Of a DNA stretch of 64,000 nt, positions 1 to 26,340 are shown piece after piece. How positions within the stretch are numbered: the first letter of the stretch is position 1; every line of letters begins with the position of its first letter. The stretch is from a virus, in IMG/VR virus record IMGVR_UViG_3300045993_000918; one strand, written 5' to 3'. Position numbers and translations under genes: made by a program. Under the pieces are notes generated by a model. It did no database searches and was not told the DNA's origin. It saw only the letters and a list, made by a program, of their open reading frames with translations.

Positions 1-3000
1 TGTCCGGCTCGGGGGTGGGGGTGGAGTCGTCCCCCTTCGTCATCGACCCATCGGTGTCGACCCGGAACCCGCGGCGGTTCGCCTCCGTGATCAGGCCGTG
101 CAGCCGGACCGGCGCGAGGCCGTCCGAGCCGTCGGCGAAGAACTTCGCGTCGGGTCCGAGTTCGGAGACCAGGTTGTTGACGTGCTGCTGGAGCTCCTCG
201 TCGGTGAGTTCGCGGATCGAGGCGTCGGTGCCGCGGAGCTGGCGGGTCAAGAAGTTGCTGTCGCCCGCGAACGCCTCAGCCGTGGCCTTGTCCGGGAATA
301 CGCCGCGCCCGCCGTTCTTCGACCCGTCGTCGTTGACCGTCCAGACCTCGTAGTGTCCGAAGTTCGGGTCGCGGGGGTCGAGGATCGGGAAGGAGCGGAG
401 CTCGGTGTCACCGAACGCCTCAGCGCGGGACTTCGTGCGGGCGTCGTCGGGGCCTGACGCCTTGTAGCTCGGGGCGTCGCCGAACTCGTCGGCCTCGCCC
501 TTCGCCCGCCGGACGGCCTCCTTGAGACGCGCGGTGAGCTTCCCACTGTCGACCGCCCCGGGGTCGGTCCGGATCGTCTCGGCGGCGTACTGCGAGAGCG
601 CCCCAAAGAACTCCGCGTCGAGGTCGGAGTCCTGAACGACGTCGACGCTGTCCGCGACGTTCTCGGCCCACTCGATCGCGGCGGCTCCGCCGTCCTCGCG
701 GTTCCCCGTGTGGTCCGAGGCGAGGCCCCAGACGGTGGAGGAGAAGCTCGGGCCGAGCCGCTTTAGCCGCTCGTCGACGACGTCGGCGCGGGCACCCAGC
801 GCAGCCTCGCGGTTCTGCTGCAGGCCGCCTACGCGGTCGTCTACGTCGAGGTACTCGCGGAGCGCGTCGGTCACGGCGCGGAGGTCCTCGTTCCGGCTCT
901 CGCCGAGCCGGTCGACGATCAGCTGCAGCGCGTTGGAGTTCTGGTCTTCGAGCGCCCGCTTCCCGACGATGCTGTTGAGCTGTTCCTTCACCGCCCAACC
1001 GAGGCCGTCGATCGCCTGGTAGTCGTCGAGGTAGTCGTCCGGGTCCTCGTAGCCGAGGCCGCCAGCGATGTCCAGCATGTTCTGGTAGGCGCGAACGAGT
1101 CGAGGCTCGAACTCGCCGTCGTTCTCGGTCGGGTCGGTACCCGACTCGAGCATGCTCCGGAACTCGTCGATCCGGGCGTCGAGGTTCCCGCCCTCGGTCC
1201 AGCTCGGGGTGTCGAAGTCCTCGAGGTTCGGACGCTGCGTCAGCGTCGTACCCTCGGGGCCGGACTCGAGCAGGTCGGAGTCGGCGAAGGGGTCGCCCCC
1301 GAGGCCCATCGACGCCGCCCGGCGCTCCTTCTCGGCCTCGAGTGCGTCGAGGATCTGCCGGTCCGACCGGCCGAACGAGCCGGGAGCCTGCTTCTCGATC
1401 TGGTGGTAGGTCTGGATCTCGTTGCTGAGCCTGCTGTCGCGCAGTGTGGTGAGGTCCGTGGTGTTGAACCTGGACTGCAGCTCCTTCTGCAGCGTAGCGG
1501 AGTCCGCGGCGGACTTCTCTGCCGCCATCTGCGACTCGGTGGTCATCCCCATCTCGTTGGCGATCCTGGTCAGCTCGTCGGGGACGGGGCGACCCTTCGA
1601 CGGAGGCGGCTCGAACCCGGCCTGCTCCGCGATCCCCGCGAGCTTCTCCATCCCGGACGGACCGTTCGGGTCGGGCGTGCCCGGGAGCGCGAGCGCGTCG
1701 GGAGGAACGACGGTGGCGTCGCCGGGGCCGGAGGGATCCCCGAAGAGCCCCTCAGCGATCGAACGGGCGGCGACCACCGACTGGCCGTGCTCGGCCTCGG
1801 GGTCGCCGTCGTAGCCCTCAGCGTCCGCAGGGTCGAGGTAACCCCACGACTCCTCCTCGCGATCGAGCACCTCAGCCAGCTTTGCGCCGAGCTGGTCGCT
1901 CAGTCCGGGCTGTTCCTTCGCGGCGGCCTCGAAGTCCGAAGCGACCGTGAGCGGGACGTTGACGGCGTCGACCAGGTCCTGACCCGCGTACCCCGCCAGG
2001 ATGTCATCCGGGTCGCCGCGGAGGAACAGGTCGCCCTGAGTCGCATCGTCCCCGACGCCAGGGTCGGCGGGGGCGCCGTCCGCCTCGGGGCGGTGCGGGA
2101 GGTCGCCGTCGTTCATGTCGGCGTAGCCGTCCTGGAGGTACCCCGACATGTCGTCGGCGGCGTCGGCCATGGCCGCGGAGTCGCCGGAGCGGATCGCCGT
2201 CGCGAGCGCGTCCATCCGAGTCTTCAGGTCGCTGTCGACCCAGGGGTCCTCGGCATCCTCGACGTTCGCCTCCTGGTAACCCTGCGCCTCGCTGAAGACC
2301 GCCTTCGCGTAGTCCTCGTTCGTCTTCGGGTCGGGGTCCCCGGAGCGCCAGTCGGAGTCGATGCCCTCGTAGTCCGCGGCGTCGTAGCCAGCCAGGTCGC
2401 CACCGTCGAAGGCGTCCGGGACGGACGGCTCGACGACGTCGGGGCCGACGGCGTGGTCGTCCTCGTACGGGCCGCCGCCCATCTCGAGGTTGTCGGCTGC
2501 CTGCTTGATCAGGTCCTCGTTGTCGCTGTCGAGCTGGAGCTCGGCGAACAGGTCGCGCAGCCCGCTCCTCTCGGTGCCGCTGGCCTGGCTCATGTCCCAG
2601 TTGCTCAGCACCTCAAGCGCGTCGTCCGGCGTCAGCTGGTCAGCGGTGTAGTCAGCGATGAACCGCTTGTAGTCGGCGCCCTCGTCGGCCTGGTCCACCT
2701 GGTCCGTGAAGGCCTTGTCGCGCTCGGGATCGTCCGGGCCGCCGCCCCAGCTCGGGTCGGCCTCGCTCTGGGCCTCGTCGGGGTGCTCCTCGTCGGAGCG
2801 GAGCTTCGCGAGGTGGGAGTCGGCGGACCCGCCGTCGAGCCGGGCCTTCGCGTCCGGGGCGTTGTCGAGGTTCTTCGGCTCGACCTCGATCAGGCTGCCG
2901 TCGTCGAGCTGGACCTGCACGACGATGTGCTTGCCCACGTTGTCCCGCGAGACTCCGACGGCCGTACCCTGCTTGCTCGGCTTGGCGAACCCGGCGCCGT

Positions 3001-3265
3001 CGTAGACGTTGACCCGGCCGCCGTTCTCGATGAACTGGCCGTCGCGACCGCGCGGGTGCAGCGCCTCGCTCCAGGCGGTCTTGATGCCCCTGACGACCTT
3101 GTCCCCGGCCCCGGCCGTGAGGCCCCAGCCCTCCGGGATCTGAGCCTCGGCGCCGAACGCCCGCGCCCTCCGGGTGACGTACCACCGGCTCTTCGGGTTC
3201 CGGTCCGCGTAGCGGATCGCCCCGTCCAGGTCAGCTGCCGAGGCCACAACGGGCACAGTGGACAT
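1..3265 (-). CDS. large acidic virion-associated protein, C-terminus runs off left edge (>1088 aa)
   Basis: Absent from track because no stop lies in the window. Hand translation of the minus strand is open from ATG 3265 (SD GGAGATGGAGA) to base 2 with high GC3: MSTVPVVASAADLDG... Asp/Glu-rich. Carries WSEALHPRGRDGQFIE module shared with 5150..12055. Confidence 0.75.
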   Translation of the reverse strand, partial: MSTVPVVASAADLDGAIRYADRNPKSRWYVTRRARAFGAEAQIPEGWGLTAGAGDKVVRGIKTAWSEALHPRGRDGQFIENGGRVNVYDGAGFAKPSKQGTAVGVSRDNVGKHIVVQVQLDDGSLIEVEPKNLDNAPDAKARLDGGSADSHLAKLRSDEEHPDEAQSEADPSWGGGPDDPERDKAFTDQVDQADEGADYKRFIADYTADQLTPDDALEVLSNWDMSQASGTERSGLRDLFAELQLDSDNEDLIKQAADNLEMGGGPYEDDHAVGPDVVEPSVPDAFDGGDLAGYDAADYEGIDSDWRSGDPDPKTNEDYAKAVFSEAQGYQEANVEDAEDPWVDSDLKTRMDALATAIRSGDSAAMADAADDMSGYLQDGYADMNDGDLPHRPEADGAPADPGVGDDATQGDLFLRGDPDDILAGYAGQDLVDAVNVPLTVASDFEAAAKEQPGLSDQLGAKLAEVLDREEESWGYLDPADAEGYDGDPEAEHGQSVVAARSIAEGLFGDPSGPGDATVVPPDALALPGTPDPNGPSGMEKLAGIAEQAGFEPPPSKGRPVPDELTRIANEMGMTTESQMAAEKSAADSATLQKELQSRFNTTDLTTLRDSRLSNEIQTYHQIEKQAPGSFGRSDRQILDALEAEKERRAASMGLGGDPFADSDLLESGPEGTTLTQRPNLEDFDTPSWTEGGNLDARIDEFRSMLESGTDPTENDGEFEPRLVRAYQNMLDIAGGLGYEDPDDYLDDYQAIDGLGWAVKEQLNSIVGKRALEDQNSNALQLIVDRLGESRNEDLRAVTDALREYLDVDDRVGGLQQNREAALGARADVVDERLKRLGPSFSSTVWGLASDHTGNREDGGAAAIEWAENVADSVDVVQDSDLDAEFFGALSQYAAETIRTDPGAVDSGKLTARLKEAVRRAKGEADEFGDAPSYKASGPDDARTKSRAEAFGDTELRSFPILDPRDPNFGHYEVWTVNDDGSKNGGRGVFPDKATAEAFAGDSNFLTRQLRGTDASIRELTDEELQQHVNNLVSELGPDAKFFADGSDGLAPVRLHGLITEANRRGFRVDTDGSMTKGDDSTPTPEPD

Positions 3266-3336
3266 CCGTATCTCCATCTCCGACGCCCTTGGCGGGGTTC
3301 GAGCTCGAGTTTATCAGACTTGAGGACAGCGAGGTA

Positions 3337-3972
3337 TCAGGACGCGTTCGCACCCCACCTCGCCTGGGCGCGCTCAAGGGCCCATGACCCGGGGCGCAGG
3401 TCGAGGGCCGCGGAGCGCTCCTTCAGGTCCTCGGGGACCTTCGCGGGCCATCTGGTCGCGAGCTCCTGCAGAGACTCGTCGTCACCCGTTCGTGCGGCCT
3501 TGAGCAGCATGCTCGTGAGCCGGGCGTCGTGCCCCATCCGGAACCGGCCGCCCTTCGTCGGCTCGCCGCAGCACTCGCAGCGTCCGGCCTTCCTCGAGGC
3601 GGTCGGCGTGCGGAAGGCGTCGGTGCCGACCGCCGAGTCGGCCTTCCGCTTCGCGTTCTGGGCCACGAGCTCGGACGCGGACTTCCCGGTCCACGCCTGC
3701 GGTGGGGTCTGCCCGTGATTGTAGCCCGCCAGGATCGCGGCGGCGCAGTTCGCCCGGTCGTGGCACTCGCCGTTCGAGTCGACCTCGTCCGGGCGTCGCG
3801 CCCGGCCGCACTGGTTGCAGCGCGCTCCGCGACTGTAGTCGCAGCCGCAGCCGCAGCGACCGGGCGCCTCGCACTCGGCGTGCGCGTCGACGGGCCGGAC
3901 CGCGGCGCTGATCCTGCCCTCCGCGAGCAGCCTAGCTGTCACGCAGGAGGAGCACACGACCGCGGCGGTCAT
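3337..3972 (-). CDS. Cys-rich hypothetical protein (211 aa)
   Basis: Track ORF with ATGA overlap to upstream stop. Motif CECCGEPTKGGRFRMGHDARL is paralogous to CGCAITPKGKNATFGMGHDIRL of the next gene. Confidence 0.7.
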   Translation of the reverse strand: MTAAVVCSSCVTARLLAEGRISAAVRPVDAHAECEAPGRCGCGCDYSRGARCNQCGRARRPDEVDSNGECHDRANCAAAILAGYNHGQTPPQAWTGKSASELVAQNAKRKADSAVGTDAFRTPTASRKAGRCECCGEPTKGGRFRMGHDARLTSMLLKAARTGDDESLQELATRWPAKVPEDLKERSAALDLRPGSWALERAQARWGANAS

Positions 3973-4736
3973 GAGACCTTCGCCAGCTTGCCATCAGCGG
4001 TCTTGCGGACGACGTGGACGACGCCCTTCGCGTCGCTGTACTCGAACTCGATCTCAGCGCCCTTCTTGTAGATCGCGACGACGCGACCGTCGTAGGACCA
4101 GCGCCCGATCTTGAGCAGCTCGCGGTCGCCGACCATCGGGCCGGTAGCTGCGGCGAGCACGGCCTTGTCGGCGTGCTTCCCGCGGTTCGCGATCCGGTCG
4201 ACGCCCGCAGCGACCGACGCCGACCAGTCGAGCTTGTCGGTGCTGTAGAAGGCGGCGAAGTCGATCGGATCGTGCTGACGGTGCGAGTCGTTGGCCGGGT
4301 CGACTTCGACGACCTTCGCTCCGGCCGCGGCGGCGCGGATCAGCTTCCCGCGCAGGCGGATGTCGTGGCCCATGCCGAAGGTGGCGTTCTTCCCCTTCGG
4401 CGTAATGGCGCAGCCACACGGGCAGTCGCCGGGAGTGATCGCGAGGATCAGGGCGGACGGGTACTGCTCACGCAGCGACCCGACGCGGTAGTCGACCGAG
4501 CTGTCGTCGATCGGCGCGTACTTGCCGGGGGTCCATCGGTTCATCTTGATTCTCCTCGTCGGGCGGCCCGTGGTTGAGCCGCAGTCTGTGTCCTGGTCGT
4601 CCTGGTCGTGCTGCGCTTCGCACCCGGGGAGGCACCCCGGCCGTGTGCACGGAAGCGTCCGGCCCTCGCTGATCCACTCGACGGGGATCAGGACCTCGGT
4701 GGCCTCGCACCAGCATGTCGCGGTGACTTGTCGCAT
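3969..4736 (-). CDS. hypothetical protein (255 aa) with Cys cluster and GMGHDxRL motif
   Basis: Track ORF. SD TGAGAGGAG upstream of ATG 4736. First gene behind promoter 4783..4812. Confidence 0.75.
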   Translation of the reverse strand: MRQVTATCWCEATEVLIPVEWISEGRTLPCTRPGCLPGCEAQHDQDDQDTDCGSTTGRPTRRIKMNRWTPGKYAPIDDSSVDYRVGSLREQYPSALILAITPGDCPCGCAITPKGKNATFGMGHDIRLRGKLIRAAAAGAKVVEVDPANDSHRQHDPIDFAAFYSTDKLDWSASVAAGVDRIANRGKHADKAVLAAATGPMVGDRELLKIGRWSYDGRVVAIYKKGAEIEFEYSDAKGVVHVVRKTADGKLAKVS

Positions 4737-5149: not shown

Positions 5150-8100
5150 TCACACCGCCTTCAGCTTTGCACCCGGAGTGCCAGGCTTGAGACCGCGTCG
5201 GACGGCCGAGTGCTCCTGGGCGAGCAGCACAATCCCGAGGTACCAGGCGCGCATCCACTTGGCCCGGTCGCGAGTCGCCTGCTCCGAGACCGGAGACACA
5301 TCGGACCGGTCGCCGAGCACGGCCTCGGACGTCATCGTCAGCAGCTCGTAGCTCGCGGTGTGCGATCCGATCTTGTCGTCGGCCCAGCTGCCCGGCGCGT
5401 ACACCTTCCCGACGTACGGACTGTAGAACTCGTCGCGGAAGGCGATCTCGTACTTGCTGTAGCCGTCGCCCGGCAGGATCGTCGCCAGCTTGGTCTTCCG
5501 GTACTTGAACAGCTCCTTCGCAGTGCCCTTCTTGACCTTCCGTTCGCCCGGCTTCCCGCGGTAGCACGAGTCGGTCATCGCAGCCCACTCGAGCCGCTTC
5601 ACCCACGCAGCATTGTTCTCGACTGCGTGGTGTTCCTCGTGGATCACCGTCGAGACGGCTTCGTGGTCGCTCGGGAGGCTCAGCTCCGCGGTGCCGCGCG
5701 AGCCGCGGCGAGCGGCCCGCACCGTCACCTTGTGGCCGTCGCCCCAGGCCGTCTCGACCATGGCGGTCGGCATCTGGCGCAGGCCTTCCTTGATCCCGCG
5801 GGCCTGCACCCGGTCCGTGCTTTCGAGCGTGACCGGAGCCTCGTGCCAGGCGTAGCTCGGAAGGCGGTCGGCTGACGTTCCGTCGCTGTACTCGAAGTGC
5901 CAGGATCCATCGGACTCCTGGCGCACGACCGTGACCGTGACCGCGCGCTTGAACTTCGTCGGCCGGTTCCGGTCGCCGCCCGAGGAGACGAGGGTGCCGA
6001 CCTTGAGCTGGCTCGGGGAGACCCACGACCGATCGGTGTCCCAGACGTACGGCGCGTCGATCTCTTCGGGCGCCCCGAACGGCACACCCAGGCGCTGCAG
6101 CAGCTCGACGTAGATCGCCTTCCGGCGCTCGAAGTACAGTCGACGCTCGTTCCCGAGCGGGTTCCCGGTGCGTGACTTGAGCGTCTGCTCGAGCCGCTCC
6201 GCCCAGGCAGCGAGCTCGGGCCCCACGGCTGCGTCGTAGTCGCGCTCCCAGTCAGAGTCGATGTAGTTCTCGTGGTAGACGTGGTCGGTCCGGTCGAGCC
6301 AGGCCATGATGTAGTCGCGCCGGTTGGTCACGCCGCGGCTCTTCAGCACGTCGGCTGCGGCCTCGTCGAACGCCTGCCACTTCGCGTCGTCGAAGTCCGC
6401 CAGCAGCTGCCGGTACTTCTTGACCTCGGTCGCGTCGGGGAAGATCTTCGCGGCGTCGAGCCCTTCGGCGGCGAGCTGCGCATCGACCTCGTCCTCGAGC
6501 GCCTGGCCCATCGCGACGACGGCCTCGAGCTGCGCGACCGTCGTCTCGCCCGGGCCACCGTCCGGCATGTAGTCGACCTGCTGGATCGAGTTCTGACCAC
6601 GCTCGAGGCGCTTCTTGAGCATCAGACGGTTGCCCTCGAGCGCGTCCCGCGCTCGGTACCGGAAGTCAGCCGCCTCCTCCGCCTGCCTGCTCATCGAGAC
6701 GGAGAGGTAGTAGTCGTCGGTGTTGGTGTGACTCCAGTAGTACGGCGACGCGTAGTTCCTGACTCGCGAGAGGAAGGCCGGATCGAACTCGTTGGCCGGG
6801 TCGAGAACCGAAGCCGGAGGCTCGACCAGCGTGATGTCCTCCGGGTCCTTCATCCCGGCGTGCTGGATCGCCTCGTACCACACGGCCAGCGCGTTGCGGC
6901 GACGCTCGTAGAACTCCGCGAGGTTCTTCTTCTTGACGTAGCCCGCGTCGGTCTCAGGGGTCCACGACCCGTCCGCGAGGGCTCGGGCGTTCGCGGCCTT
7001 CTCGGTCGAGTCGGCGGCGTTCTTGCGCAGCCTCCGCGCCCGCTTCACCGGATCCCAGTTCTCCAGCGTCTCATCGCGCAGGTTCGACTTCCCAGGGACG
7101 CCGAACGTCTCGTAGGAACCGACGCGCATGACGTACTGGAACCCGTCAGTCGTGCGCTTCCCAAGCACCCGCACTGTGCTCTTCGGGGGCGGCACGTCCT
7201 CGCTGCTGGGGTGGTCCCAGTCGTTGACGAACCCACCTGGCTCGGCGGCCCGACGCTCATACTCCGCCCGGACAGCATCGACCCAGTCCTCCCAGGCCTT
7301 CGCCTCGGCCAGGTGGGCCGTGGCCTCGCGCTCGTAGCGCCCGACCATCGCGTCCTGCTCCGGGTCCCGGTCGCCCGTCGTCAGTCCGATCTCGCTCGGG
7401 TCGTCCGGGAGCTTCTCGCGTGCCCGCGCCACGCGTGCGTGCGCACGCTCGACCGCTTCCGGGCTGAGCACGGGGAGGAACCCAGTGACCGGATCGGCGG
7501 TCAGCCCCATCTGCTCTGGAGAGATCGCGTCGGCCGGGCCGGACCGCCCTCCGGCCTCACCTTCGGAGAATATCGGGCGGTAGTCCTCGAACCGGAGCGA
7601 GCCGTCGGGGTTCTGGTGGTTCGAGACGTCGTCATCCCAGTTCTGGTTCGTGGTATAGAGCGTCTTCCCCGAGCTGAGCTTGACTTCGGGGTGTGCCCGG
7701 CTCTCGTAGGTGAAGTGGTGCTCACCGACGGCCTCGAAGTCCGCGAACTTTGGCGGAGCGTCGACATGCCCGACCCACCGGGCGAAGTGCAGGTCACCGT
7801 CGACGTCGACGGTCACCATCGCGGTGCGCGACTTCTCCGACGTACGCTTGAAGTCCCAGGGTCCCTCAGCCCCGACCTCCATCGGCGCTGCGGTCACGAG
7901 GATGTGGTTCGCGTCGACGACCTCCGCGGCCTCGATCCAGTAGATGTGGTTCGCGTCGTCGTTCGGGAGCAGCTGGCGCCCTCCGTCACTGACGTGCAGC
8001 GTCCCGCCGTCCTGCGTGATCGCGCTGGAGTGGACCATCCCGTTGTTCCCGCTGAATGTGTCGCCGTAGAGCCAGACGGAGCGGTCCCCGGGGAGGTCGA

Positions 8101-11100
8101 TCGAGAGCGAGACATCGGCGGCGCCCCACTCCGCGGTCGGGACCTTCGACCACATCGCCGCGAACCCAGCCGCACTAGTCGGAGCGGCCACCCGCGCCTT
8201 GGCCGGGACGGAGACGTGCGGTGTCTCCTGCGCCGAGATGCTAGTCTGCGGGAGCGGCGGCGCGATGGCGTCGGGGGAGTCGGCGTCAGCGTCGTCACCG
8301 TCGAGCATCGAGATCCCGACGCCAGACAGCGCAAGCGCTGCGGCTCCGCTCGCGACCAGCTTCCGGATCAGCGAGGTGCGCATCCAGTTGTGACTGTGCA
8401 CCTGCCGGGTATCCAGCGACCTGGTCTTCGCCAGGATCTCCTCGGCGGTCGGGACGACCTCCAGGACCTCGTGCACCTCGTCCGCGTCGTACGGCAGGAC
8501 GTGGTCCCCGACCCTGATCTCGGACGCGGGCGAGCTCGCGTAGTGCCGCGGCGCCCAGCTCGAGCCTTCCCACCGGTCCGACTCGTCCACGGACGGCGCG
8601 GGGCCGGACGGCGCGGGGCCGGACGGCGCGTCGCGGCGCTCCCGGCCGCCCCCTCGCACGTGGTAACCCTCGTCGATCGACTCGGCGCTGACGGAGCCCG
8701 CCGAGCCACCCGCCGACGGACGCCACCGGCCGTCTTCGAGCTTCGTGTAGAACTGACGGCCGGGTCGCTCAACGATCGTACCAGGCGAGAGCGCGTCGAG
8801 CTCTCCGAGGCTCAGCCCCTCCTTCGGGTCGAAAGGTGTAGCAGTGTACGAGCCGTCGTCGTTGATCCACCCGGCGAACGGGTCGTCGACGCGGTTCTTC
8901 TTGGTCTTCTTCCGGTGGCTCGCGACCATCCCGGCGCGCACCTCGTCCGGGTCGACCCCACGCTTCTCAGCGATCGCAGCGACGACGATCTCCATCGCCT
9001 CCCAGCTCGCGCGCTTCTGCGAGTCGGGCTTGTAGCTCCAACCGATGTAGTCCGCGGCGCCGCTCCACCAGTTCAGCGCGGCGCGCTCGGTGCGGAACGT
9101 CTCGCGGATCCCGCCGTCGTTGATCACCAGCGGCTCGCCCGTGGCCGTCGGCGCGTTGGCCTTCGCCTGCGCCTCACGCTCGAGCTTCGCTTGCGCCCGG
9201 AGTTCGCGGTCCTCCGCGGCCTTCCGCTCGTCGGGGGAGAAGATCCTGGTCTTCCGGTTCAGCGCGCTGACCGGTGCGGTCGGGTAGCACGTCGTGCAGG
9301 CCCTCTCACCAGCGTCACCGACGATCCGGTCCTCCTTCTCGTCGGCATACTCCGGCAGCCAGATGAACTCAGTGCCGCCCGACCAGGTCCCGTCGGGGCG
9401 GTACTGCCCGGGGCGGCAGGTCGAGCACTCCCGGCTCTTGTGTACGTGCCCCCCGCCGGAGGACGTCACGAGGAAGGCGCGCGTCCACCTGCCGCGGCGG
9501 TGGAACTCGCCCCTGTAGACCTCTTCGGCGGCTACCGCGACGCGACGCCTCTCCTGCAGCGCGTCGTACCGGGTACGCAGGTCGACGGTCCCGTACTCCT
9601 GAGTGGTGTAGTTGTACTCCTGCTTCGGCTCGTAGGCCGCGAGCACGTCAGCGAACGGCATCGCGTACAGGCGGTCATCCTCGCGCCACTTCGGCTTCTC
9701 ACCGGCCTTCTCGGTCCCGCCCGGCGTCGCGCGCCGGATCTGGTCCTGCAGTCGCGCAACCTCAGTCGCGACCTCGTACTGCTCGACCCAGGTCTGCTCG
9801 GTGTTGACGTCGATCTGCTTCGGTGAGAGGTCCTGGATCGCCGCGACGTCCGGATGCAGCCAGTCCTCGGTGAGTGCGGGTCGGACCGGCGGAGGGGTGT
9901 CTACGGGGTCGGAGACCTCCAGCGGAGGCGGAGGGACGGGCGCAGGCTCCGGGTCCACCGCAACCGGACCCGGAGGCGTCTTCTGGTCTACGTACGCAGC
10001 GCCGCGGTGATCGGTGGCGCTGAGCGCGTCGCGGATGGCATCGGCGCGACTGCGGAACCCGAACCGCTCACGCTGCGTACCGGGGAGCACGCCGGGCTCC
10101 GGGGCCCACGACCAGAGCGTCGCGTCCTTCCGGCTGCTCACGATCCGGCCGGAGCCTGGGCTCTTCTTGTCGATGTACCCCTCGTACGACTTGACACGGC
10201 CGAGCTTGGTTCCGTCCGGGGCGTACACACCGTAGGCCTTGCCGTCCCCCGAGCCGCTCTCGAGGACGACGGCGAACGTCTCCGGTGCGACGGGCCCCGG
10301 GTTCGGTGCGATGGGCCTCGGGAGGCCTTCGTCGGCCTTCTCGGGGGCGACGTCGCCGCGGAGCAGAGCGGCCTTCCGCTGCAGCGCCCGCAGCTGCTCC
10401 TCACGGTCGAGCTGGTAACCAGCAGCGACAGCCCGCCGCACAGCATCGGTCAGGCTGTTCGTGTCGATCGTGTCCTGAGCGCCGATAAGGGCGACGCGAA
10501 GGTCCTCGTCGTCTCCGGCGGACACGGCGTAACGCAACCCGCCCCTGCGGGAGTAGTAAGTGTGGACGACGGCGCGGGTCTGCCGGTCGCCGACGTACAC
10601 GTCGAACGTGCTGGCGTACTGGGCGACCGCCCCGGTATCGGGTCGGACCCACACGGCCTCGCCATTTGAACCGTCCACGCCCTCGATCGGGACAGACCAA
10701 CGCCCATCGGAATCCTGCCGCGCCTGGGACGGCGGGGTCAGCCCGACGCCGATGGGCTTCTCGACCACCGGAGGCGGAAGCTCCGCGGGGTCGGCCGCCT
10801 CGACGGGCTCCGATCCGCCCCTCGCCTCCTTCAGCGCGGCGTCCCGGGCGTCCGACATGTCGGTCATGCCGGTGACGGCCATGTAGCGCTGGACAGCCGC
10901 GTTGCGGGTGTCCCGCTTCTTCATCTTCTCCCGGTCGCCCTTGGGGGACGCCTGCCAGGTCGCCTCGGCCTCCGCGACCGCCGCGGCGGCCGAAGCGCGG
11001 TCGGCGCCGGGCTCCGGTACGTTCGGGGCGGGGTCGGGCTTCGGCGTCGGTGGGATGACCGCCTTCTTCCTCGGGGTCGGGTTCGTGCCGCGCTTCGTCA

Positions 11101-12055
11101 GGGCCATGGTGACGGCACCGCGGCGAGCGGCGAGCTTTGCGGAGCTGGAGCGGTACTGCGCCATCAGCTCGTCGTGCGGGAGATCGGACCGGTTGGTGAC
11201 GTCCATCTCGTCGTAGTACTCGGCATCGGCCCGGCTCATCCGGAGGACGGCCCACAGCGCGATCACCTCGCCGGTGTTGATCGACTCGCCGCGAGCGATC
11301 TTCCGAGCTCCGGAGCCGATCCTGTCGGCGAGCTCCTCGAGGGTCGGAGCGCGGTCCTTGCCCTTCTTCTCATCGTAAACCGCGGAGAGGTTGTTGAGCC
11401 CTTGAGCGCGCAGGCCGTTGAACGCGTCCTCGAGGGTGCGACCGGTCTCCGGGTCGACCACGACCTGCTCGGTCGTCCACCCGACCCGGCCCGACTTGAT
11501 CGTGTCCTCGATCTCGTACGGAGTCATCGGCCGACCGTCGTCGCCCAGCGGCGGCCACTCCGAGCTGGTCGGCCCCGAGCTCGAGGGGATCTCGGCCTTG
11601 ACCGAGGCGGTCTGGACCTGGTCGTAGTCGAAAGTCGCGTCGGTACCTCCGGCGGCCTCGGACCGAAGCACGACCTTCCCGTCGCTGAACCCGACGACGC
11701 GGCCGGACGCTACCTCCCGTGCCCCGTCGAAGACCTGCGCGAACGCGCCGACCTCGATGAACCTCCCGTCCCGCCCGCGCGGGTGGGCGTCGGCGTCCCA
11801 GACGCGCCCGAGGGCGCCCGCGACGTCGGGTGCGATGCTTGCGTGCTCAGCCATGCGGCCGATTGTACTCGCAGTCAAGCCCATTTCACGACCGCGTCGC
11901 ACGATGTGCGTGGCCGAGCCGAAGAGGTCCGGCGTACGTCCGGCTGCGAGCAGCGCCGCGATCACGTCGTCGACGTCCTCGATCGGGAGCCGACCGTCCG
12001 GCGTGGCGACGCCAGCGCGGGCCGCCTCGGCAACCCGGGACGGGGTCCAGATCAC
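5150..12055 (-). CDS. giant mosaic (polyvalent-type) virion protein, 2301 aa
   Basis: Track ORF 5150..12433. First 126 codons are Arg-rich and overlap the portal gene, so start set to GTG 12055 (GTGA overlap with portal stop). Modules: HPRGRDGRFIE, Cys/His Zn-ribbon-like GHVHKSRECSTC...ACTTC, hydrophobic helix, WLYGDTF domain, C-terminal HEEHH (HExxH). Confidence 0.8.
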   Translation of the reverse strand: MIWTPSRVAEAARAGVATPDGRLPIEDVDDVIAALLAAGRTPDLFGSATHIVRRGREMGLTASTIGRMAEHASIAPDVAGALGRVWDADAHPRGRDGRFIEVGAFAQVFDGAREVASGRVVGFSDGKVVLRSEAAGGTDATFDYDQVQTASVKAEIPSSSGPTSSEWPPLGDDGRPMTPYEIEDTIKSGRVGWTTEQVVVDPETGRTLEDAFNGLRAQGLNNLSAVYDEKKGKDRAPTLEELADRIGSGARKIARGESINTGEVIALWAVLRMSRADAEYYDEMDVTNRSDLPHDELMAQYRSSSAKLAARRGAVTMALTKRGTNPTPRKKAVIPPTPKPDPAPNVPEPGADRASAAAAVAEAEATWQASPKGDREKMKKRDTRNAAVQRYMAVTGMTDMSDARDAALKEARGGSEPVEAADPAELPPPVVEKPIGVGLTPPSQARQDSDGRWSVPIEGVDGSNGEAVWVRPDTGAVAQYASTFDVYVGDRQTRAVVHTYYSRRGGLRYAVSAGDDEDLRVALIGAQDTIDTNSLTDAVRRAVAAGYQLDREEQLRALQRKAALLRGDVAPEKADEGLPRPIAPNPGPVAPETFAVVLESGSGDGKAYGVYAPDGTKLGRVKSYEGYIDKKSPGSGRIVSSRKDATLWSWAPEPGVLPGTQRERFGFRSRADAIRDALSATDHRGAAYVDQKTPPGPVAVDPEPAPVPPPPLEVSDPVDTPPPVRPALTEDWLHPDVAAIQDLSPKQIDVNTEQTWVEQYEVATEVARLQDQIRRATPGGTEKAGEKPKWREDDRLYAMPFADVLAAYEPKQEYNYTTQEYGTVDLRTRYDALQERRRVAVAAEEVYRGEFHRRGRWTRAFLVTSSGGGHVHKSRECSTCRPGQYRPDGTWSGGTEFIWLPEYADEKEDRIVGDAGERACTTCYPTAPVSALNRKTRIFSPDERKAAEDRELRAQAKLEREAQAKANAPTATGEPLVINDGGIRETFRTERAALNWWSGAADYIGWSYKPDSQKRASWEAMEIVVAAIAEKRGVDPDEVRAGMVASHRKKTKKNRVDDPFAGWINDDGSYTATPFDPKEGLSLGELDALSPGTIVERPGRQFYTKLEDGRWRPSAGGSAGSVSAESIDEGYHVRGGGRERRDAPSGPAPSGPAPSVDESDRWEGSSWAPRHYASSPASEIRVGDHVLPYDADEVHEVLEVVPTAEEILAKTRSLDTRQVHSHNWMRTSLIRKLVASGAAALALSGVGISMLDGDDADADSPDAIAPPLPQTSISAQETPHVSVPAKARVAAPTSAAGFAAMWSKVPTAEWGAADVSLSIDLPGDRSVWLYGDTFSGNNGMVHSSAITQDGGTLHVSDGGRQLLPNDDANHIYWIEAAEVVDANHILVTAAPMEVGAEGPWDFKRTSEKSRTAMVTVDVDGDLHFARWVGHVDAPPKFADFEAVGEHHFTYESRAHPEVKLSSGKTLYTTNQNWDDDVSNHQNPDGSLRFEDYRPIFSEGEAGGRSGPADAISPEQMGLTADPVTGFLPVLSPEAVERAHARVARAREKLPDDPSEIGLTTGDRDPEQDAMVGRYEREATAHLAEAKAWEDWVDAVRAEYERRAAEPGGFVNDWDHPSSEDVPPPKSTVRVLGKRTTDGFQYVMRVGSYETFGVPGKSNLRDETLENWDPVKRARRLRKNAADSTEKAANARALADGSWTPETDAGYVKKKNLAEFYERRRNALAVWYEAIQHAGMKDPEDITLVEPPASVLDPANEFDPAFLSRVRNYASPYYWSHTNTDDYYLSVSMSRQAEEAADFRYRARDALEGNRLMLKKRLERGQNSIQQVDYMPDGGPGETTVAQLEAVVAMGQALEDEVDAQLAAEGLDAAKIFPDATEVKKYRQLLADFDDAKWQAFDEAAADVLKSRGVTNRRDYIMAWLDRTDHVYHENYIDSDWERDYDAAVGPELAAWAERLEQTLKSRTGNPLGNERRLYFERRKAIYVELLQRLGVPFGAPEEIDAPYVWDTDRSWVSPSQLKVGTLVSSGGDRNRPTKFKRAVTVTVVRQESDGSWHFEYSDGTSADRLPSYAWHEAPVTLESTDRVQARGIKEGLRQMPTAMVETAWGDGHKVTVRAARRGSRGTAELSLPSDHEAVSTVIHEEHHAVENNAAWVKRLEWAAMTDSCYRGKPGERKVKKGTAKELFKYRKTKLATILPGDGYSKYEIAFRDEFYSPYVGKVYAPGSWADDKIGSHTASYELLTMTSEAVLGDRSDVSPVSEQATRDRAKWMRAWYLGIVLLAQEHSAVRRGLKPGTPGAKLKAV

Positions 12056-13635
12056 GCCGGGACCTCCTCCTGCATCGGCACGGCCGAGAGGCCCGGGGGC
12101 GCTGCCTCGATCGCGACCGGAGCCGGAGCGGATGTGGCGGCGAGCTGCTCCTGCAGCCCGGGCGGGAACGGACTGGCCGACTGGTTCGAGGTCTGCGCCT
12201 TCTTGAGCACCTCGGGCATGAGGAACATCAGCAGCGCCTGCGAGATCTCCTCCGGGATGATCGCCTTCTCGACTGCCATCCGCCAGGTGATCTCCTCCTC
12301 GGTCGGCGCGTCGTTGTCGCCGAACCCGTGCGCCGCGCGCCAGGCCTCGCCGGAGAGGATGTACTTCTCGTACCCGCTGTCGGCGTCGTTGCTGCGGTTC
12401 GGCCGGACGACGACCTCGGACGGGTCGTACCACACGACGATCCGGTTGACATCCTCGGTCTCGTAGCCCGCGGCGCGCAGCAGCGGCCGGAGGTAGATGT
12501 CCGTGATCGCGTCGCAGAACATCAGCGCCAGCGGCTCGATGTGCGCCTTGTACAGGCCCTCGTCGATCTGGATCGCGTTGCTGTATTTGACGTTGGCCAG
12601 ACCGGTCACGATGTCCTTCGGCACGTCGATCCCCTGCAGGATCCGCTCGAGCACGCGCTCAGCCCGGTTGACCAGCGCCTCGTCGCTGTCGCGGCTCAGC
12701 TGGATGTACGCGATCTTCTCACCCTGCTCGGCCGGACCGCGAACCAGCAGCGGGACAACGCTCGCGGCGCTGCCCTCGTCGCTGATCGGCTGGGTCATCG
12801 CGGCGACGAGCTCGACCTCGAACGGATCCTCGCCCTCGGTCTCCTCCTCCCCGGGTGTGCGGGCCGAGATCGAGAGCGAGTCGGGCACGAACAGCAGACC
12901 GGCGTTGAGCCGGGAGCGGGTCGTCGCCCGGATCATCCGGCTCAGCAGCAGCAGCTCCTCGCAGTCCCCGCGGAGCGCCTTCATCGAGCTGTCCGGGTCG
13001 GCGCTGAACCGCGGGTGCGCCCGCCAGATCCGGCCGATCGGGGTGTCCTTCGGGATGACCTTCTCCCGGGCGGTGCTGGTCGAGACCGAGGCCTTGAGCA
13101 CGATCCGCCCGGCGCTGTTGACCCGCAGCTCGTCGACGGACTTCACACTCCACCGGTTCTCGATGCACACGAGGTAGCACTCGCCCGGGACGCTCATGTT
13201 CAGGCCGTAGGAGCGCAGCATCGCCGGGATCCCGTCGCCCTGACTCAGCTGCTCCATGAAGCGCTGGGCGTCCTTCGCCAGCCTGGGGTCGATCGGAGTC
13301 AGGCCCTGCAGCGGGCCGTCGTCGGCGTACTGCCCCTCGCCTTTGACGCCCGCGGCATCCGTGACGTTCGTCGGCGGGGCGTCAGAGTTGAGCACGGCGG
13401 AGGCGACGAGACGCACCCGGCTCAGCACGTTCGCGACCAGACCAAACCCGAACTTGACCTCGCCGATCGCGTCGTAGTACGCCCAGGCCTCGGCCTGCCA
13501 CTCGGCGTTCGGGCCGCTCAGACGCTCGCGCATCTGCTCGGCCTCGCCCTTCTTCGAGAGCGAGACCTTCGCAGCCGACGCAGTCAGCGTGCGGGTCTGG
13601 TTGTACGGAGCGGCCCTAGGCCTTCCGAACACCAC
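12052..13635 (-). CDS. portal protein
   Basis: 527-aa track ORF downstream of the terminase genes. Size and composition typical of SPP1-type portals. Alternative start ATG 13533 (MRERLSG). Confidence 0.75.
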   Translation of the reverse strand: MVFGRPRAAPYNQTRTLTASAAKVSLSKKGEAEQMRERLSGPNAEWQAEAWAYYDAIGEVKFGFGLVANVLSRVRLVASAVLNSDAPPTNVTDAAGVKGEGQYADDGPLQGLTPIDPRLAKDAQRFMEQLSQGDGIPAMLRSYGLNMSVPGECYLVCIENRWSVKSVDELRVNSAGRIVLKASVSTSTAREKVIPKDTPIGRIWRAHPRFSADPDSSMKALRGDCEELLLLSRMIRATTRSRLNAGLLFVPDSLSISARTPGEEETEGEDPFEVELVAAMTQPISDEGSAASVVPLLVRGPAEQGEKIAYIQLSRDSDEALVNRAERVLERILQGIDVPKDIVTGLANVKYSNAIQIDEGLYKAHIEPLALMFCDAITDIYLRPLLRAAGYETEDVNRIVVWYDPSEVVVRPNRSNDADSGYEKYILSGEAWRAAHGFGDNDAPTEEEITWRMAVEKAIIPEEISQALLMFLMPEVLKKAQTSNQSASPFPPGLQEQLAATSAPAPVAIEAAPPGLSAVPMQEEVPA

Positions 13636-16596: not shown

Positions 16597-18051
16597 TTAG
16601 CCTGCACGGCGGCCGTTGATCGAGTTGCGCGAGGTCACCGCGGCTGCGCCGGTCGGAATCCGGCCGCGAGAGCCGGGGCCGGAGACGCTGGTCGAGCCGA
16701 CCCCGCTCCGGACCGCGGCCGGTACGATCAGCGCGGTCATCCCGTGCACCATCGCATCGAGCCGGTCCGGACTCTTCGCGGTCTCACCCGGGACCCAGGT
16801 CGTCATCTGGTCCTCGAGGCTGAGGAACCGGCCGACGTGGTGGATCCGGTGCTGGTCGTAGGCCAGCGTGACCGGCTCGGCGCGCAGCGCCTTGCCCTGC
16901 TTGGCGTGCACCAGCTTGACCGCGACCCCGGGGTCTAGGCTGTGGATGACCTCGCGCACCAGCGCCCCGCCCTGGTTCGCCTCCGCCACGATCGGGCAGC
17001 TGTACGTTCGCGCAGCCTCGACCGCCGCGGCGGCCCAGACGCTCGGCGGTCCGAGCACGGACCGGTCCGCGAGCACGAACGCCTGGCGCTCGATCGGCCG
17101 GATCTCGGAGGTCGCACCGCACACGACGATCCCGCACTCATCGCCAGGCTCGTCCGCGACCGAAGGGTCGACGCCGACGACGCGCAGCGGCGGGAGTTGG
17201 AACCCGTGCGACTCGACCCGGTCGGCGTCAATCTCCTCGAGCTTCCAGAGCGCACCCTGGACGTCGGCGAGCATCTGCGCGTACAGCTCCTGCGCACCGA
17301 GCCGGGTGCCCTCGTACCGGCGCAGGATGACGTCGAGGTAGACCTGCGCGAGGTGCGGGTTGTCGAACGTCGAAGCGGTGTGCAGCTCGACCTCGTTGGT
17401 CTCTTCCTCAGCCAGCGCGTATAGTTCACGCATAACCGGCGTGCGCTTCGGTGTGGTCGTGACGAACAGCTGCGGGTGGCTCCCGAGCCGGGTCGCGATC
17501 TGCGCGTTGTCCCAGGCGGTCAACCCGGAGTCGTCCGGCTTGTGGTCCCAGGCCGCAAGCTCGTCCGCCCAGGTGTAGTGGAACTGCGGACCTCGGAGCT
17601 GACTCGGCTCCTCAGCGCTGAAGCACAGCGCCTCGGAGCCGTTGGCGAACTCGACCTTTCGTAGGCTCGGGATGTAGCGCGGTCGCTGGCTCGGCGGGTA
17701 GACTGCGAGCAGCCCGGACTCGCCTTGGACCATGACGTCACGCACGTCGGCGACCGTGCGCCCGACCAACGCCAGCCGCACGGGTGAGTCGTGCGGCCCG
17801 GTCTTGTCCCGGATCCACTCGGCGCCGGAGCGCGTCTTACCTGATCCGCGGCCAGCGCTGAACAGGATGATCCGAGCCAGCGACCGGACCGCGGCGAGCT
17901 GGCTGGGCCGCCCCATGTAGTCCCAGTCGTGCAGTAGCGCGTCGAGCTCGAGCTCTACCAGGATCAGCGAGCGCTCCTCCTCCGAGAGGATAGCGACGCG
18001 AGACTCGAGGCTGAGGTCGAGCGGTGGCGCCTCAGGCAGCAGGGTCGTCAT
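16597..18051 (-). CDS. terL: terminase large subunit
   Basis: Walker A SAGRGSGKTRSG plus C-terminal nuclease-like region. Start uncertain (18051 MTTLLPE or 18096). Confidence 0.85.
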   Translation of the reverse strand: MTTLLPEAPPLDLSLESRVAILSEEERSLILVELELDALLHDWDYMGRPSQLAAVRSLARIILFSAGRGSGKTRSGAEWIRDKTGPHDSPVRLALVGRTVADVRDVMVQGESGLLAVYPPSQRPRYIPSLRKVEFANGSEALCFSAEEPSQLRGPQFHYTWADELAAWDHKPDDSGLTAWDNAQIATRLGSHPQLFVTTTPKRTPVMRELYALAEEETNEVELHTASTFDNPHLAQVYLDVILRRYEGTRLGAQELYAQMLADVQGALWKLEEIDADRVESHGFQLPPLRVVGVDPSVADEPGDECGIVVCGATSEIRPIERQAFVLADRSVLGPPSVWAAAAVEAARTYSCPIVAEANQGGALVREVIHSLDPGVAVKLVHAKQGKALRAEPVTLAYDQHRIHHVGRFLSLEDQMTTWVPGETAKSPDRLDAMVHGMTALIVPAAVRSGVGSTSVSGPGSRGRIPTGAAAVTSRNSINGRRAG

Positions 18052-18832
18052 CGCCCACCAGCTCAGCCTCGAAGATCTCTTCGACCGAGAGGCCACGAGC
18101 GGACGCCTCGAGCTGGACCATGGCCGCGCTGTTGAGTCGGTCGAGCCGCTCCGCGATCACCTGGGCCGGGGAAGGCCGCCCGTCGTCCTCAACGTCAGCC
18201 GCGCCGAGTCGGAGCGTGGAGGTCGGGCCGACCCCGACGCGGTCGAGTACGGCGACCGCGGCGTCGAGCCGGACCTTCTCCGAGCGGCCGTGGTCGAGCA
18301 GGTCCTCGATCACGCCGACGGCCCGCTCCGAGAGCCCGAGCAGGTGGTCCGCGACCATGCGGCTGACCATCTCGCGGTCGGCGGTCGACATGGTCTGCGC
18401 ACCGTGCCGGTGGCAGAGCTCGGACCCGGCCGGAGGCTGACGGAAGCAGCCCGGCTCGGTGCAGAGCTTCGGCGCCTCGGGGTAGAACGGGCTGGCCAGC
18501 CCGCCGACGCCGATCCGGTCCACGGCGGTGAGACCGAACTGGGTAGCGTAGTCGTCCGCGAGCAGCTTCGCGCCGACCAGGTGCGGGCTGTCCTCCCGGC
18601 GTAGCACGCGGACGACCCGCTCATGCCGGTAGAACTCGTTGAAGCTCCAACGGGTCGCGATGTGCTTCGCGGCCTCGGCCCGCTGCGCGTCGAGGTTCGT
18701 CGGCTGCAGCGCCATCCACTCGTAGAACGGTGGGATCTTCGGCTTCCGGGGCCGCTTCGCCGGTACCGGGGCAGAGCCAGCAGCGACCACGACCTTTGAG
18801 GGCGTGGGCCTCTTCGCCGGGACAGGTGCCAT
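18032..18832 (-). CDS. terS: terminase small subunit (by position)
   Basis: 266 aa directly upstream of and overlapping terL. Basic Pro/Lys N-terminus. ATG 18832 lies 6 nt downstream of TACAAT. Confidence 0.55.
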   Translation of the reverse strand: MAPVPAKRPTPSKVVVAAGSAPVPAKRPRKPKIPPFYEWMALQPTNLDAQRAEAAKHIATRWSFNEFYRHERVVRVLRREDSPHLVGAKLLADDYATQFGLTAVDRIGVGGLASPFYPEAPKLCTEPGCFRQPPAGSELCHRHGAQTMSTADREMVSRMVADHLLGLSERAVGVIEDLLDHGRSEKVRLDAAVAVLDRVGVGPTSTLRLGAADVEDDGRPSPAQVIAERLDRLNSAAMVQLEASARGLSVEEIFEAELVGDDDPAA

Positions 18833-24887: not shown

Positions 24888-25261
24888 CTCCCCGTCTCTC
24901 GTGCGAACATCGCCATCGAGGCGTACACCAGCGTGTCGCTCCAGGTGTCGAAGCTCGGCGTCTTGCCCTTGAGCATCGCATCGGCGACGCGCTGCACCTT
25001 CCCGTAGACGTAGAGGAAGCAGCCGATCTCGACGGCCTCCCGCTCCTCGATCTCGCGGCCCTGGCCGCGGGCGAAGATCCGGCCCATCTCGACCAGCGAG
25101 TTAGTCCCGTACTCCTCAGCCTTCGCCGCGATCGTCGGCGCGTTCGCGTCGACCCAGGCGTGGAACCAGTCCGGGTACGCGACCGGCGGGGCGACGACCC
25201 CGGTGATCGCGGACGGGTGCCGGGTCATCGACTCCGACCGCATGCCCTCCTCGTCCGTCAC
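24878..25261 (-). CDS. MazG-like all-alpha NTP pyrophosphohydrolase candidate (MazZ-like)
   Basis: 127 aa, GTGA-coupled to the purA-like gene. Acidic helix motifs AEEYG, EIEEREAVE, DTWSD. Assignment is by pattern and context only. Confidence 0.4.
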   Translation of the reverse strand: MTDEEGMRSESMTRHPSAITGVVAPPVAYPDWFHAWVDANAPTIAAKAEEYGTNSLVEMGRIFARGQGREIEEREAVEIGCFLYVYGKVQRVADAMLKGKTPSFDTWSDTLVYASMAMFARETGRWP

Positions 25262-26340
25262 AGCCAGGCCGATGGGTTGTAGACGCTCATCGTGTTCGGG
25301 CCCGTACCGACCAGCGCGACCGGCGCGGCAGCCTCGATCGCGATCGTGTCGAGGAAGTCGCGGTGCGTCTCCTTGAACTCGTCCGGCCGGGCATCACGCA
25401 GCTCCGGGTACTTCTGGTCGAGCATCGAGAGCGCGAGCACGACGTCGCGGCTCGGGCCGCCGTTCGCGCGCACCGCCTGGCTGACCCAGTCGGCGTCCCA
25501 GTCCCCGACGCGACGCACCTTCTTCGTCACCGTGGTCAGCTCCTCGGGCAGCCCGAGCGCCTCCCAGGTCGTCTCGGACGCGAGGTATCCGCTGTTGCCC
25601 GCGACGCGGATCGGATAGACCCGCACGACGACCACGACGCGGACCCGGCTCACGCCCTCGGCCCACGGGCTGACCCCGGCCATCGAGAGGAAGTCGATCG
25701 CCCGGCAGTCCGCCGTGGTGCACTTCGGGTAGTGCCCGGCGTGCAGCCCGAGCTGGTAGCCCTGGACGCCCTCGATCACGACGTGCCAGCCCTCGCTCAG
25801 GCGCCGGGAGAGCAGCGCCGCGGTGTTGACCACCCGGCCGGGCACCCCGCCGTTGACGGCGAAGTCGCCGATCAGCCGGGCGCCGCGCAGCATCCGGTCC
25901 GCCCGAGCGGCGCCGACGCCCTTCGCCGTCGAACCGATCGCCTTGTGCAGGTCGAGCGCAGCCTCGGTGTCCTTGTGCTTCTGCTCGATCACCGTCGACT
26001 CCGGGTCGACCCAGAGCCGATCCGCGATCCGGTGCCCGGCGGCCTCGAGCTCGGAGACCTCGGACCGGAGCACGTCGAGGTCGATCTCGGACCCGGCGGC
26101 GATCACCAGCGCGGCGTTCGGGTTGACGAAGCTGACGGGCACGTGCCGGAGTGGCCAGGCGCGGCCGGAGTCGTCGTAGACCGTGTGCCCAGCCTGGCTC
26201 CCCCCGACCCGCACCCCGACATGCGGGGTCTTCGAGCTCGCGTCCTCGTAGGCGAGGAAGCCGGTCGCGGCCCCCTTCGCCTCCGAGCCCGCCTGGCCGC
26301 CTACCACCACGGTGATCAGGCCCTGTCGTGAGATGGTCAT
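25258..26340 (-). CDS. purZ: short adenylosuccinate synthetase homologue, PurZ candidate
   Basis: 360 aa. Aligns by eye to PurA: GGQAGSEAKGA vs GDEGKGK P-loop (Asp to Ser), GGSQAGHTV, IGSTAKGVG, IEGVQGYQLG..GHYP, TTVTKKVRRVGDWD, VGTGPN. SD AGGAGGA. Confidence 0.7.
   Translation of the reverse strand: MTISRQGLITVVVGGQAGSEAKGAATGFLAYEDASSKTPHVGVRVGGSQAGHTVYDDSGRAWPLRHVPVSFVNPNAALVIAAGSEIDLDVLRSEVSELEAAGHRIADRLWVDPESTVIEQKHKDTEAALDLHKAIGSTAKGVGAARADRMLRGARLIGDFAVNGGVPGRVVNTAALLSRRLSEGWHVVIEGVQGYQLGLHAGHYPKCTTADCRAIDFLSMAGVSPWAEGVSRVRVVVVVRVYPIRVAGNSGYLASETTWEALGLPEELTTVTKKVRRVGDWDADWVSQAVRANGGPSRDVVLALSMLDQKYPELRDARPDEFKETHRDFLDTIAIEAAAPVALVGTGPNTMSVYNPSAWL

Follow-up and report, generated by a model that had tools for sequence, protein, structure and literature searches.

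Packaged effectors decide the first minutes of a phage infection, in anti-restriction, takeover and entry, and the recognition of such cargo for loading is known in a few model phages only (the T4 internal proteins, P1 DarB), whose signals do not generalise. Among the polyvalent proteins, which hold 2-15 domains, members bearing a zincin peptidase are predicted to be packaged (Iyer, Burroughs, Anand, de Souza & Aravind 2017, J Bacteriol; PMC5512222). The 250-kDa protein DarB of phage P1 and IPIII of T4 are packaged via N-terminal capsid-targeting sequences; the DarB signal comprises at most 30 residues, the Dar proteins have no common consensus, and DarB is listed next to the portal in the order of P1 open reading frames (ORFs 10 and 11) (PMC9024508). 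Here, a 64,000-nucleotide (nt) stretch of viral DNA (IMG/VR record IMGVR_UViG_3300045993_000918, referred to as the window) was analyzed, in which the ORF directly downstream of the portal gene encodes a protein of 2,301 amino acids (aa), hereafter the giant. We consider it reasonably probable that the giant is a polyvalent cargo protein, packaged in the head and ejected from it, that carries a previously undescribed incorporation tag.

Like the polyvalent proteins (PMC5512222), the giant combines many unrelated modules in one polypeptide, is encoded beside portal and terminase genes, has an HExxH (zincin-like) domain, and contains modules that also exist as solo phage proteins; its link to LPD29 is a neighboring gene in one viral contig only (L017). 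Unlike them, it has no detectable domain of the Pfam-catalogued inventory, including the Pfam LPD families, and no methylase, helicase, ADP-ribosyltransferase (ART), ParB or RNA polymerase module was found in it. The giant resembles P1 DarB in its very large size and its adjacency to the portal gene, and the same N-terminal loading logic may be proposed by analogy. In contrast to the DarB and T4 signals, its tag is a predicted folded module of ~150 residues that is conserved in hundreds of proteins and duplicated within phages; the giant had no detected sequence similarity to P1 DarB or the T4 internal proteins. As in MuF/SPP1 gp7 proteins (PF04233), which follow the portal as well, a proposed N-terminal head-association module precedes variable C-terminal domains, and the HExxH family of the giant ends many MuF proteins. 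However, MuF-like genes occur alongside tag proteins in phage Gilgamesh and virus HHTV-1, and a Pfam search of the giant at E<=1 returned no Phage_Mu_F domain. Among cultured phages, Phendrix gp66, GodonK gp67 and Gilgamesh gp48 have the N-terminal tag of the giant, and Phendrix also has the same portal family and gene position, but no similarity to the giant past the tag was detected for these three proteins in a tblastn search with the whole giant, and all are annotated as 'hypothetical protein'. Polyvalent proteins and capsid-targeting signals were known; the folded, widely conserved and duplicated tag family appears to be new. The main text of the 2017 survey does not contain it ('HPR', 0 matches). 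The giant fits the polyvalent concept (PMC5512222) and extends it to a clade of phages in which a constant N-terminal module, freely exchanged cargo, and a position directly after the portal come together.

A conserved N-terminal tag of large phage proteins

By sequence comparison, the HPRGRDGRFIE piece (aa 91-101), which the original prediction had listed as one of several modules, is a conserved N-terminal tag and not one effector among many. The first ~150 aa of the giant form this tag module, in which helices (part A) are followed by W..xHPRGRDGxFIE and a small β-barrel (part B). Part A includes a 'PDGrlPIeDvdD...GR...H..rRgreLG' segment, whose family form is 'PDGxxPI..D...A...GR....H..RR...LG'. 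The H-P-R-G..G.F-I residues were invariant in three tag alignments (A1, A2 and A7), and the β-rich stretch that follows closes with 'KA.L'. An AlphaFold2 (AF2) model from a 39-sequence alignment showed five helices and a five-stranded barrel, with a mean predicted local distance difference test (pLDDT) score of 82.7 and scores of 92-97 for aa 90-150. When this fold was searched against the PDB, only generic KOW/SH3-like barrels were retrieved (best E=0.013, none at E<=0.001), and the best matches in BFVD were the N-termini of large uncharacterised actinophage proteins, including those of Sixama and GodonK. The family is unannotated in Pfam, NCBIfam, PHROGs, UniProt/BFVD and GenBank, and literature string searches for the motif and the cultured phages gave noise only. 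In many tag proteins the HPRG core is preceded by alternative leaders, either a helix pair of the form 'LY..W..EL.Q..REPD..L[IV]ASLE.EA..RG.DL' or repeated 'LR.RVHG' motifs, which suggests that there are several interchangeable part-A modules.

The distribution of the tag was determined by an exhaustive hidden Markov model search of 1.84 billion representative proteins, which identified 710 protein clusters, 289 of them at E<=1e-10. Among the matches listed, 151 were re-detected by a local search; their median length was 1,014 aa, and the tag started within the first 40 residues in 127 of the 151. Tag proteins usually had 700-3,000+ aa, many of them 2,000-3,100 aa, with the tag usually at the N-terminus. 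The word-indexed protein search, a method unsuited to long or low-complexity queries, gave only 13 short fragments with the tag alignment as query; tblastn with the tag of the second tag-bearing protein of the window (see below) found no matches, and with the 'PDGSFPI' leader a few short ones only. Two very long members of the family contained many tag-like stretches, namely 17 in P0040 (7,334 aa), which has the HExxH domain type of the giant at its C-terminal end (aa 7160-7332), and 16 in P0061 (5,313 aa).

The genetic context of the tag genes was likewise conserved. In 12 of the 15 tag loci examined by tblastn, a homologous portal (37-53% identity to that of the window) lay upstream of the tag gene; in most of them the aligned portal region stopped 100-600 nt short of the tag gene, with a distance of about 1.2 kb in L002, and seven of the 12 had homologous terminases further upstream. 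These loci include that of the cultured Gordonia phage Phendrix, in which portal gp65 is followed by tag protein gp66 (1,479 aa). The tag gene of GodonK (gp67) was matched too, its locus being outside the 15. With the portal of the window as the tblastn query, no homologous portal was found in the Gilgamesh or HHTV-1 loci. The Streptomyces phage Gilgamesh has the motif near the N-terminus of gp48 (~4,624 aa), whose gene comes after that of a 'portal and MuF-like fusion protein', and the haloarchaeal virus HHTV-1 has it near the N-terminus of gp13 (1,100 aa), encoded in the head module before a gpF-like gene. The latter gene (gene 13 at 7620-10922 of the Haloarcula virus record KC292025, L015) encodes WNPALHPRGPDGKF at about aa 130-150 and two HExxH motifs. 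The WNPALHPRGPDGKF motif in this archaeal tailed virus indicates that the tag family crosses the divide between bacteria and archaea.

Behind the tag, the bodies of these proteins were mutually unrelated and had almost nothing in common with the giant. A Pfam scan of 31 tag proteins detected Zeta_toxin in eight, AAA_33 in six, and WGR and GNAT in one each; ParB-like 'DGHHRW' and HEFGHH motifs were recognized by eye only, and Pfam, NCBIfam and PHROGs gave nothing informative on eight tag proteins besides the two of the window. The tag is conserved and N-terminal, the order of portal and then tag gene is conserved, and the cargo is mosaic. One 93.8-kb contig (IMGVR_UViG_3300018481_000019; L010 and L012) encodes two tag proteins ~13 kb apart with two tag copies each; one of the proteins ends in a ParB-like 'DGHHRW' region, and the other has HEFGHH and ART/GNAT-like stretches (by eye; Pfam was negative).

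The window and the related contig L001 each have precisely two copies of the tag, and every copy lies 70-100 aa from the N-terminus of the large protein that bears it. The second tag gene of the window lies 1.9 kb downstream of the giant and runs past the window edge; its product carries ALHPRGRDGQFIE in the tag and matched no family in Pfam, NCBIfam or PHROGs. The only near-relative of the giant is P0002, a 3,124-aa protein in the same post-portal position, whose start is the last base of a portal-sized ORF that holds a portal homologue, and whose contig has a second tag protein downstream as well (1,416 aa). P0002 and the giant have in common the N-terminal module and the HExxH domain, in addition to one weak similarity at giant aa 1832-1892. 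Two ORFs between the tag genes of the window, at 3337..3972 (-) (211 aa) and 3969..4736 (-) (255 aa), are both Cys-rich at the N-terminus, have a common '[FR][GR]MGHD.RL...L..AA' motif, and look like paralogues; the 255-aa ORF ends in a small β-rich segment.

Part A of the tag showed a likeness to head-maturation proteases. Giant aa 3-69 aligned with the C-terminal tail of a protease encoded in viral contig L011 (31% identity, pairwise E=2e-10), which was identified by phrog_18402 (E=6e-60), and a 22-residue match of the leader was found under the annotated capsid maturation protease gene of Microbacterium phage Cece. In HK97, the C-terminal tail of the protease brings the enzyme into the procapsid.

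Frame and body modules of the giant

The giant gene is real and secure. As had been predicted, it is a single unbroken frame of 6.9 kb (5150..12055), which we place on the minus strand, with zero internal stops in its translation; its GTG (12055-12053) overlaps the TGA (12054-12052) of a 527-aa ORF, and the assignment of that ORF as the portal was borne out by phrog_776. A T4-type terminase large subunit is encoded further upstream than the portal (16597..18096). The window has ~70% GC, and nearly every gene is on the minus strand. GC content at the third codon position (GC3) was 0.84-0.94 and was the highest of the three positions in 23 of 23 consecutive 100-codon blocks, which indicates a single coding frame and gives no hint of gene fusion. 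The chance of a stop-free run of this length was about 5e-21, and a protein identical to the giant is on record from a Joint Genome Institute (JGI) metagenome assembly (84.8-kb contig). Together with the long relatives, these results left no sign of the errors splitting the frame that had been named as a possible refutation. The size, originally regarded as unusual, is less exceptional than stated, because similar giant genes lie unannotated in cultured actinophages, such as that of the ~4,624-aa Gilgamesh gp48. The former 'siphovirus' label cannot be read from the window, which contains no tail genes. A tape-measure protein was considered and rejected, as the gene lies between portal and head-side genes and the giant matched no tape-measure family.

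The giant consists of ~13 segments that are globular by composition, with Pro/Ala/acidic linkers between them; it contains just five cysteines and carries a net charge of -69. No curated family was detected in any part of it (Pfam at E<=1, NCBIfam), and the PDB sequence set yielded no match either. PHROGs recognized only aa 744-1063, as families of unknown function. Against GenBank phages, megablast of the gene found no match and tblastn of the whole giant matched only the module at aa ~745-1066, while word-indexed protein searches with the whole giant and with a linker-free concatenate returned essentially the self-match only. At least four of its modules, namely the tag, the Cys4/His2 module, the WLYGDTF domain and the HExxH domain, have each had an evolutionary history of their own. 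The sequence features on which the original prediction had been built were all located, namely the Cys/His unit (GHVH, CSTC and CTTC at aa 869-923, nt 9287-9451, within 9254..9511), a single internal hydrophobic helix, VWLYGDTF at aa 1327-1334, and HEEHH near the C-terminus.

The Cys4/His2 module has stand-alone homologues, free proteins of 250-320 aa, in 55 GenBank phage records. Residues C877, C880, C920, C923, H870 and H872 were invariant in six sequences (alignment A17), which came from phages of Gordonia, Mycobacterium, Rhodococcus and Streptomyces. The stand-alone genes are situated in non-structural regions, as is the case for TinaLin gp34, located between a DNA-binding protein and the integrase. 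The earlier description of this unit as Zn-ribbon-like is backed by the conserved Cys and His residues as far as predicted metal binding is concerned, whereas for a classical zinc-ribbon fold no PDB sequence relative was found.

The hydrophobic helix LVASGAAALALSGVGISML has a basic N-side flank (RTSLIRK) and an acidic C-side flank (DGDDADAD), and lies just upstream of the WLYGDTF domain. A stand-alone protein 48% identical to this domain, without a signal sequence, adjoins the LPD29 gene in viral contig L017, and homologues of 41-46% identity with a signal peptide or lipobox occur in genome bins of Intrasporangiaceae (L068) and Nocardioides (L069). These exported homologues, together with the helix, suggest an envelope-facing role. 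The domain had no match in Pfam, NCBIfam or the PDB, and its AF2 model (three alignment rows) was too poor for fold assignment. As to the β-propeller-like fold of the original prediction, ~220 aa would by our own reckoning be short for a five-bladed propeller. The two actinobacterial lineages were the only genomic relatives of the domain and may hint at the host range of the phage.

The HExxH domain had relatives in 50 viral loci of very different GC content. An alignment of 31 sequences (A10) showed as invariant an R, H2139, E2140, H2143, an E, Y-G-K-Y and a further E, and as nearly invariant E2146, a D and an M; conserved acidic residues downstream of the HExxH comprise E2146 and the invariant E in 'Y..E' and 'TE..SMG.E', any of which might be a third metal ligand. 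In 10 of 28 viral host proteins, Phage_Mu_F was located ~300 residues upstream of this domain, which also ends the tag proteins P0002, P0038 and P0040. Small zincins (snapalysin-type) came out on top of a PDB profile search (E=0.04), and an AF2 model from three alignment rows (pLDDT 38) placed the HExxH on a helix and had a secondary-structure order compatible with a zincin, both at low confidence. On these sequence grounds, the domain is likely a predicted zincin-type metallopeptidase. None of the HExxH, WLYGDTF and Cys4/His2 regions had a significant match in sequence searches of the PDB.

Proposed packaging as cargo and alternative roles

The original prediction had described a packaged polyvalent protein. 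Its mosaic part is well supported, since modules recur alone and P0002 has only the tag and the HExxH domain in common with the giant, and its packaging part is what we infer from the locus. The comparison with homologues in related phages, which had been proposed as a check, showed modules that recur independently and a tag common to hundreds of large phage proteins. The presence of the tag on the second large protein and on hundreds of large portal-adjacent phage proteins is the point that best supports packaging. We suggest that the giant would be co-translated with the portal, and that during assembly the tag would dock it, and likewise the second tag protein, either to the portal or to the inside of the procapsid shell. 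The body would be a set of exchangeable modules joined by Pro/Ala/acidic linkers. Of these, the putative metal-binding Cys4/His2 module may be a unit that is produced on its own, as an early protein, by other actinophages, the hydrophobic helix with the exported-type all-β domain is a candidate for membrane or cell-wall action at entry, and the terminal HExxH domain belongs to a family that normally follows MuF head proteins as a C-terminal fusion. On infection, the giant would leave the head together with the DNA, and the HExxH domain might process the chain into functional fragments or have host proteins as its targets.

Several points weigh against packaging as cargo. The evidence for it comes from context only, and the window ends before the phage's genes for capsid, scaffold, protease and tail; exact-match scans of metagenome and viral contigs found no sequence that continues past its left edge. 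The KOW/SH3-like resemblance of the barrel could equally mean binding of nucleic acid or another partner, the zincin assignment is statistically insecure (profile E=0.04; pLDDT 38), and the likeness to a protease tail comprises one metagenomic protease and one 22-residue match under an annotated protease gene. Furthermore, a membrane helix and an exported-type domain are awkward in a protein that needs solubility in the producing cell.

Among the alternatives, the giant could be a resident accessory protein of the head or portal, functionally analogous to MuF/SPP1 gp7, that helps assembly or controls DNA packaging and release, with its extra modules serving decoration or adhesion and not being injected. 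Its gene occupies the usual MuF-type site directly after the portal, scans of the giant, the portal and further ORFs revealed no MuF domain, and its HExxH family is otherwise attached to MuF proteins. We nonetheless regard this role as unlikely: a MuF-like gene coexists with a tag protein in Gilgamesh and HHTV-1, so that the tag is not simply a MuF replacement; hypervariable bodies that include toxin-type domains (Zeta toxin, GNAT) fit delivered effectors better; and two different tag proteins per phage speak against a single structural role. Rather unlikely, too, is a function outside the virion, as a polyprotein expressed late inside the cell, with a KOW/SH3-like tag for binding to a host or phage machine (RNA polymerase, ribosome or DNA) and with modules that manipulate the producing cell. 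The closest folds of the barrel are indeed the KOW domains of Spt5/NusG and ribosomal L24, and non-structural, early-type neighborhoods surround both the Cys4/His2 homologues and the WLYGDTF copy in L017. However, the KOW matches are statistically weak, and such a role is opposed by the tight linkage to portal and terminase genes conserved across the whole clade, the translational coupling to the portal, the similarity of part A to a prohead-protease tail, and the occurrence of the HExxH domain together with MuF.

An envelope-penetration or ejection-conduit protein, comparable to T7 gp14-16 or the P22 E-proteins, in which the helix and the exported-type domain would be the core and the rest spacer, would agree with the great length and many linkers of the giant and with a transmembrane-like helix directly before a domain whose two actinobacterial homologues have a signal peptide or lipobox. 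Most other tag proteins lack the WLYGDTF domain, though, the giant has one hydrophobic helix only in 2,301 aa, no muralytic family was detected in it (Pfam, NCBIfam, PDB), and the L017 homologue has no signal sequence; such a conduit is improbable in our judgment. Least credible of all is an artefact, in which ordinary genes were fused by assembly or sequencing errors or a chance frame arose in 70% GC DNA. Although high-GC DNA does yield long spurious ORFs, such as a 771-aa plus-strand ORF at 1403..3718, the codon-position signal in all 23 blocks, the identical protein from the JGI assembly, the syntenic 3,124-aa relative and the many tag proteins of 2,000+ aa leave it hardly any credence.

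A broader proposal may be ventured, to which we give a little less than even credence: the W..LHPRGxDG[KRQ]F-I-E/barrel module, with an optional protease-tail-like leader, would be a widespread, undescribed encapsidation domain and a universal adaptor for interchangeable head cargo in actinobacterial phages and at least one haloarchaeal virus. Its cargo would then include toxin-type enzymes as well as giant polyproteins 2,000 to 7,000 aa in length, and the module, a portable tag for protein delivery provided by nature, would be the first signal of its kind to be recognisable as a sequence family in both bacterial and archaeal viruses. A folded tag recognisable by sequence would allow genome-wide prediction of cargo in actinophages, including SEA-PHAGES isolates with 'hypothetical' genes, would draw attention to a large and still unexplored stock of effector domains, and would give a handle for engineering protein-delivering phages. 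The idea is directly testable in the cultured relatives Phendrix, GodonK, Sixama and Gilgamesh.

Feature coordinates and other genes of the window

Table 1 Features of the giant, its tag and the adjoining genes (positions in the window; residue numbers are those of the giant).
Feature	Position	Strand	Description
Second tag-bearing protein	1..3265	-	Starts at 3265; >1,088 aa, runs past the window edge; tag includes ALHPRGRDGQFIE; very acidic body
Giant ORF	5150..12055	-	2,301 codons and a stop; initiating GTG shares bases with the stop of the portal gene (GTGA)
HExxH domain, aa 2076-2301	5153..5830	-	HEEHH 2139-2143, PYVGKVY 2213-2219, YELLTMTSE 2236-2244
Small β-rich segment, aa 1995-2075	5831..6073	-	Before the HExxH domain; from composition and a low-confidence model
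Long region, aa 1506-1994	6074..7540	-	Mostly helical, acidic; one weak similarity to P0002 (aa 1832-1892)
WLYGDTF domain, aa 1285-1505	7541..8203	-	Predicted all-β
Transmembrane-like hydrophobic helix LVASGAAALALSGVGISML, aa 1233-1251	8303..8359	-	Kyte-Doolittle mean 1.86; single
Two small β-rich segments, aa 1063-1112 and 1158-1232	8360..8869	-	Gly/Ser/Pro linker between; sub-threshold PDZ_4 match only
Module M5 (Cys4/His2), aa 728-1062	8870..9874	-	GHVH 869-872, CSTC 877-880, CTTC 920-923; phrog_15500, phrog_2433
Module M4, aa 588-682	10010..10294	-	Common to tag protein P0030 (41% identity over aa 603-656)
Module M3, aa 440-560	10376..10738	-	Globular by composition; no relatives found
Module M2, aa 168-315	11111..11554	-	Globular by composition; no relatives found
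Tag part B, aa 86-156	11588..11800	-	W..xHPRGRDGRFIE and five-stranded small β-barrel ending 'KAEI'; AF2 pLDDT 92-97
Tag part A, aa 1-85	11801..12055	-	Five predicted helices; AF2 pLDDT 64-88
Portal gene	12052..13635	-	527 aa; phrog_776, E=2.6e-105; directly upstream of the giant
Shine-Dalgarno-like GGAGGAGG	12063..12070	-	Ends 7 nt before the giant GTG; read from sequence

The features of the giant and its immediate neighbors are compiled in Table 1. Elsewhere in the window, a PurZ-like adenylosuccinate-synthetase homologue at 25258..26409 (-) (phrog_1211, E=3e-80; Pfam Adenylsucc_synt, 2.9e-35) is encoded near a family-A DNA polymerase at 30018..32018 (-), a combination that suggests 2-aminoadenine in place of adenine (Z-genome). 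A primase/polymerase-like protein of 985 aa is encoded at 38138..41095. A 395-aa protein at 50640..51827 (-) ends in a DUF6011 domain (4.7e-15) and adjoins an SNF2-type helicase at 51849..53303.

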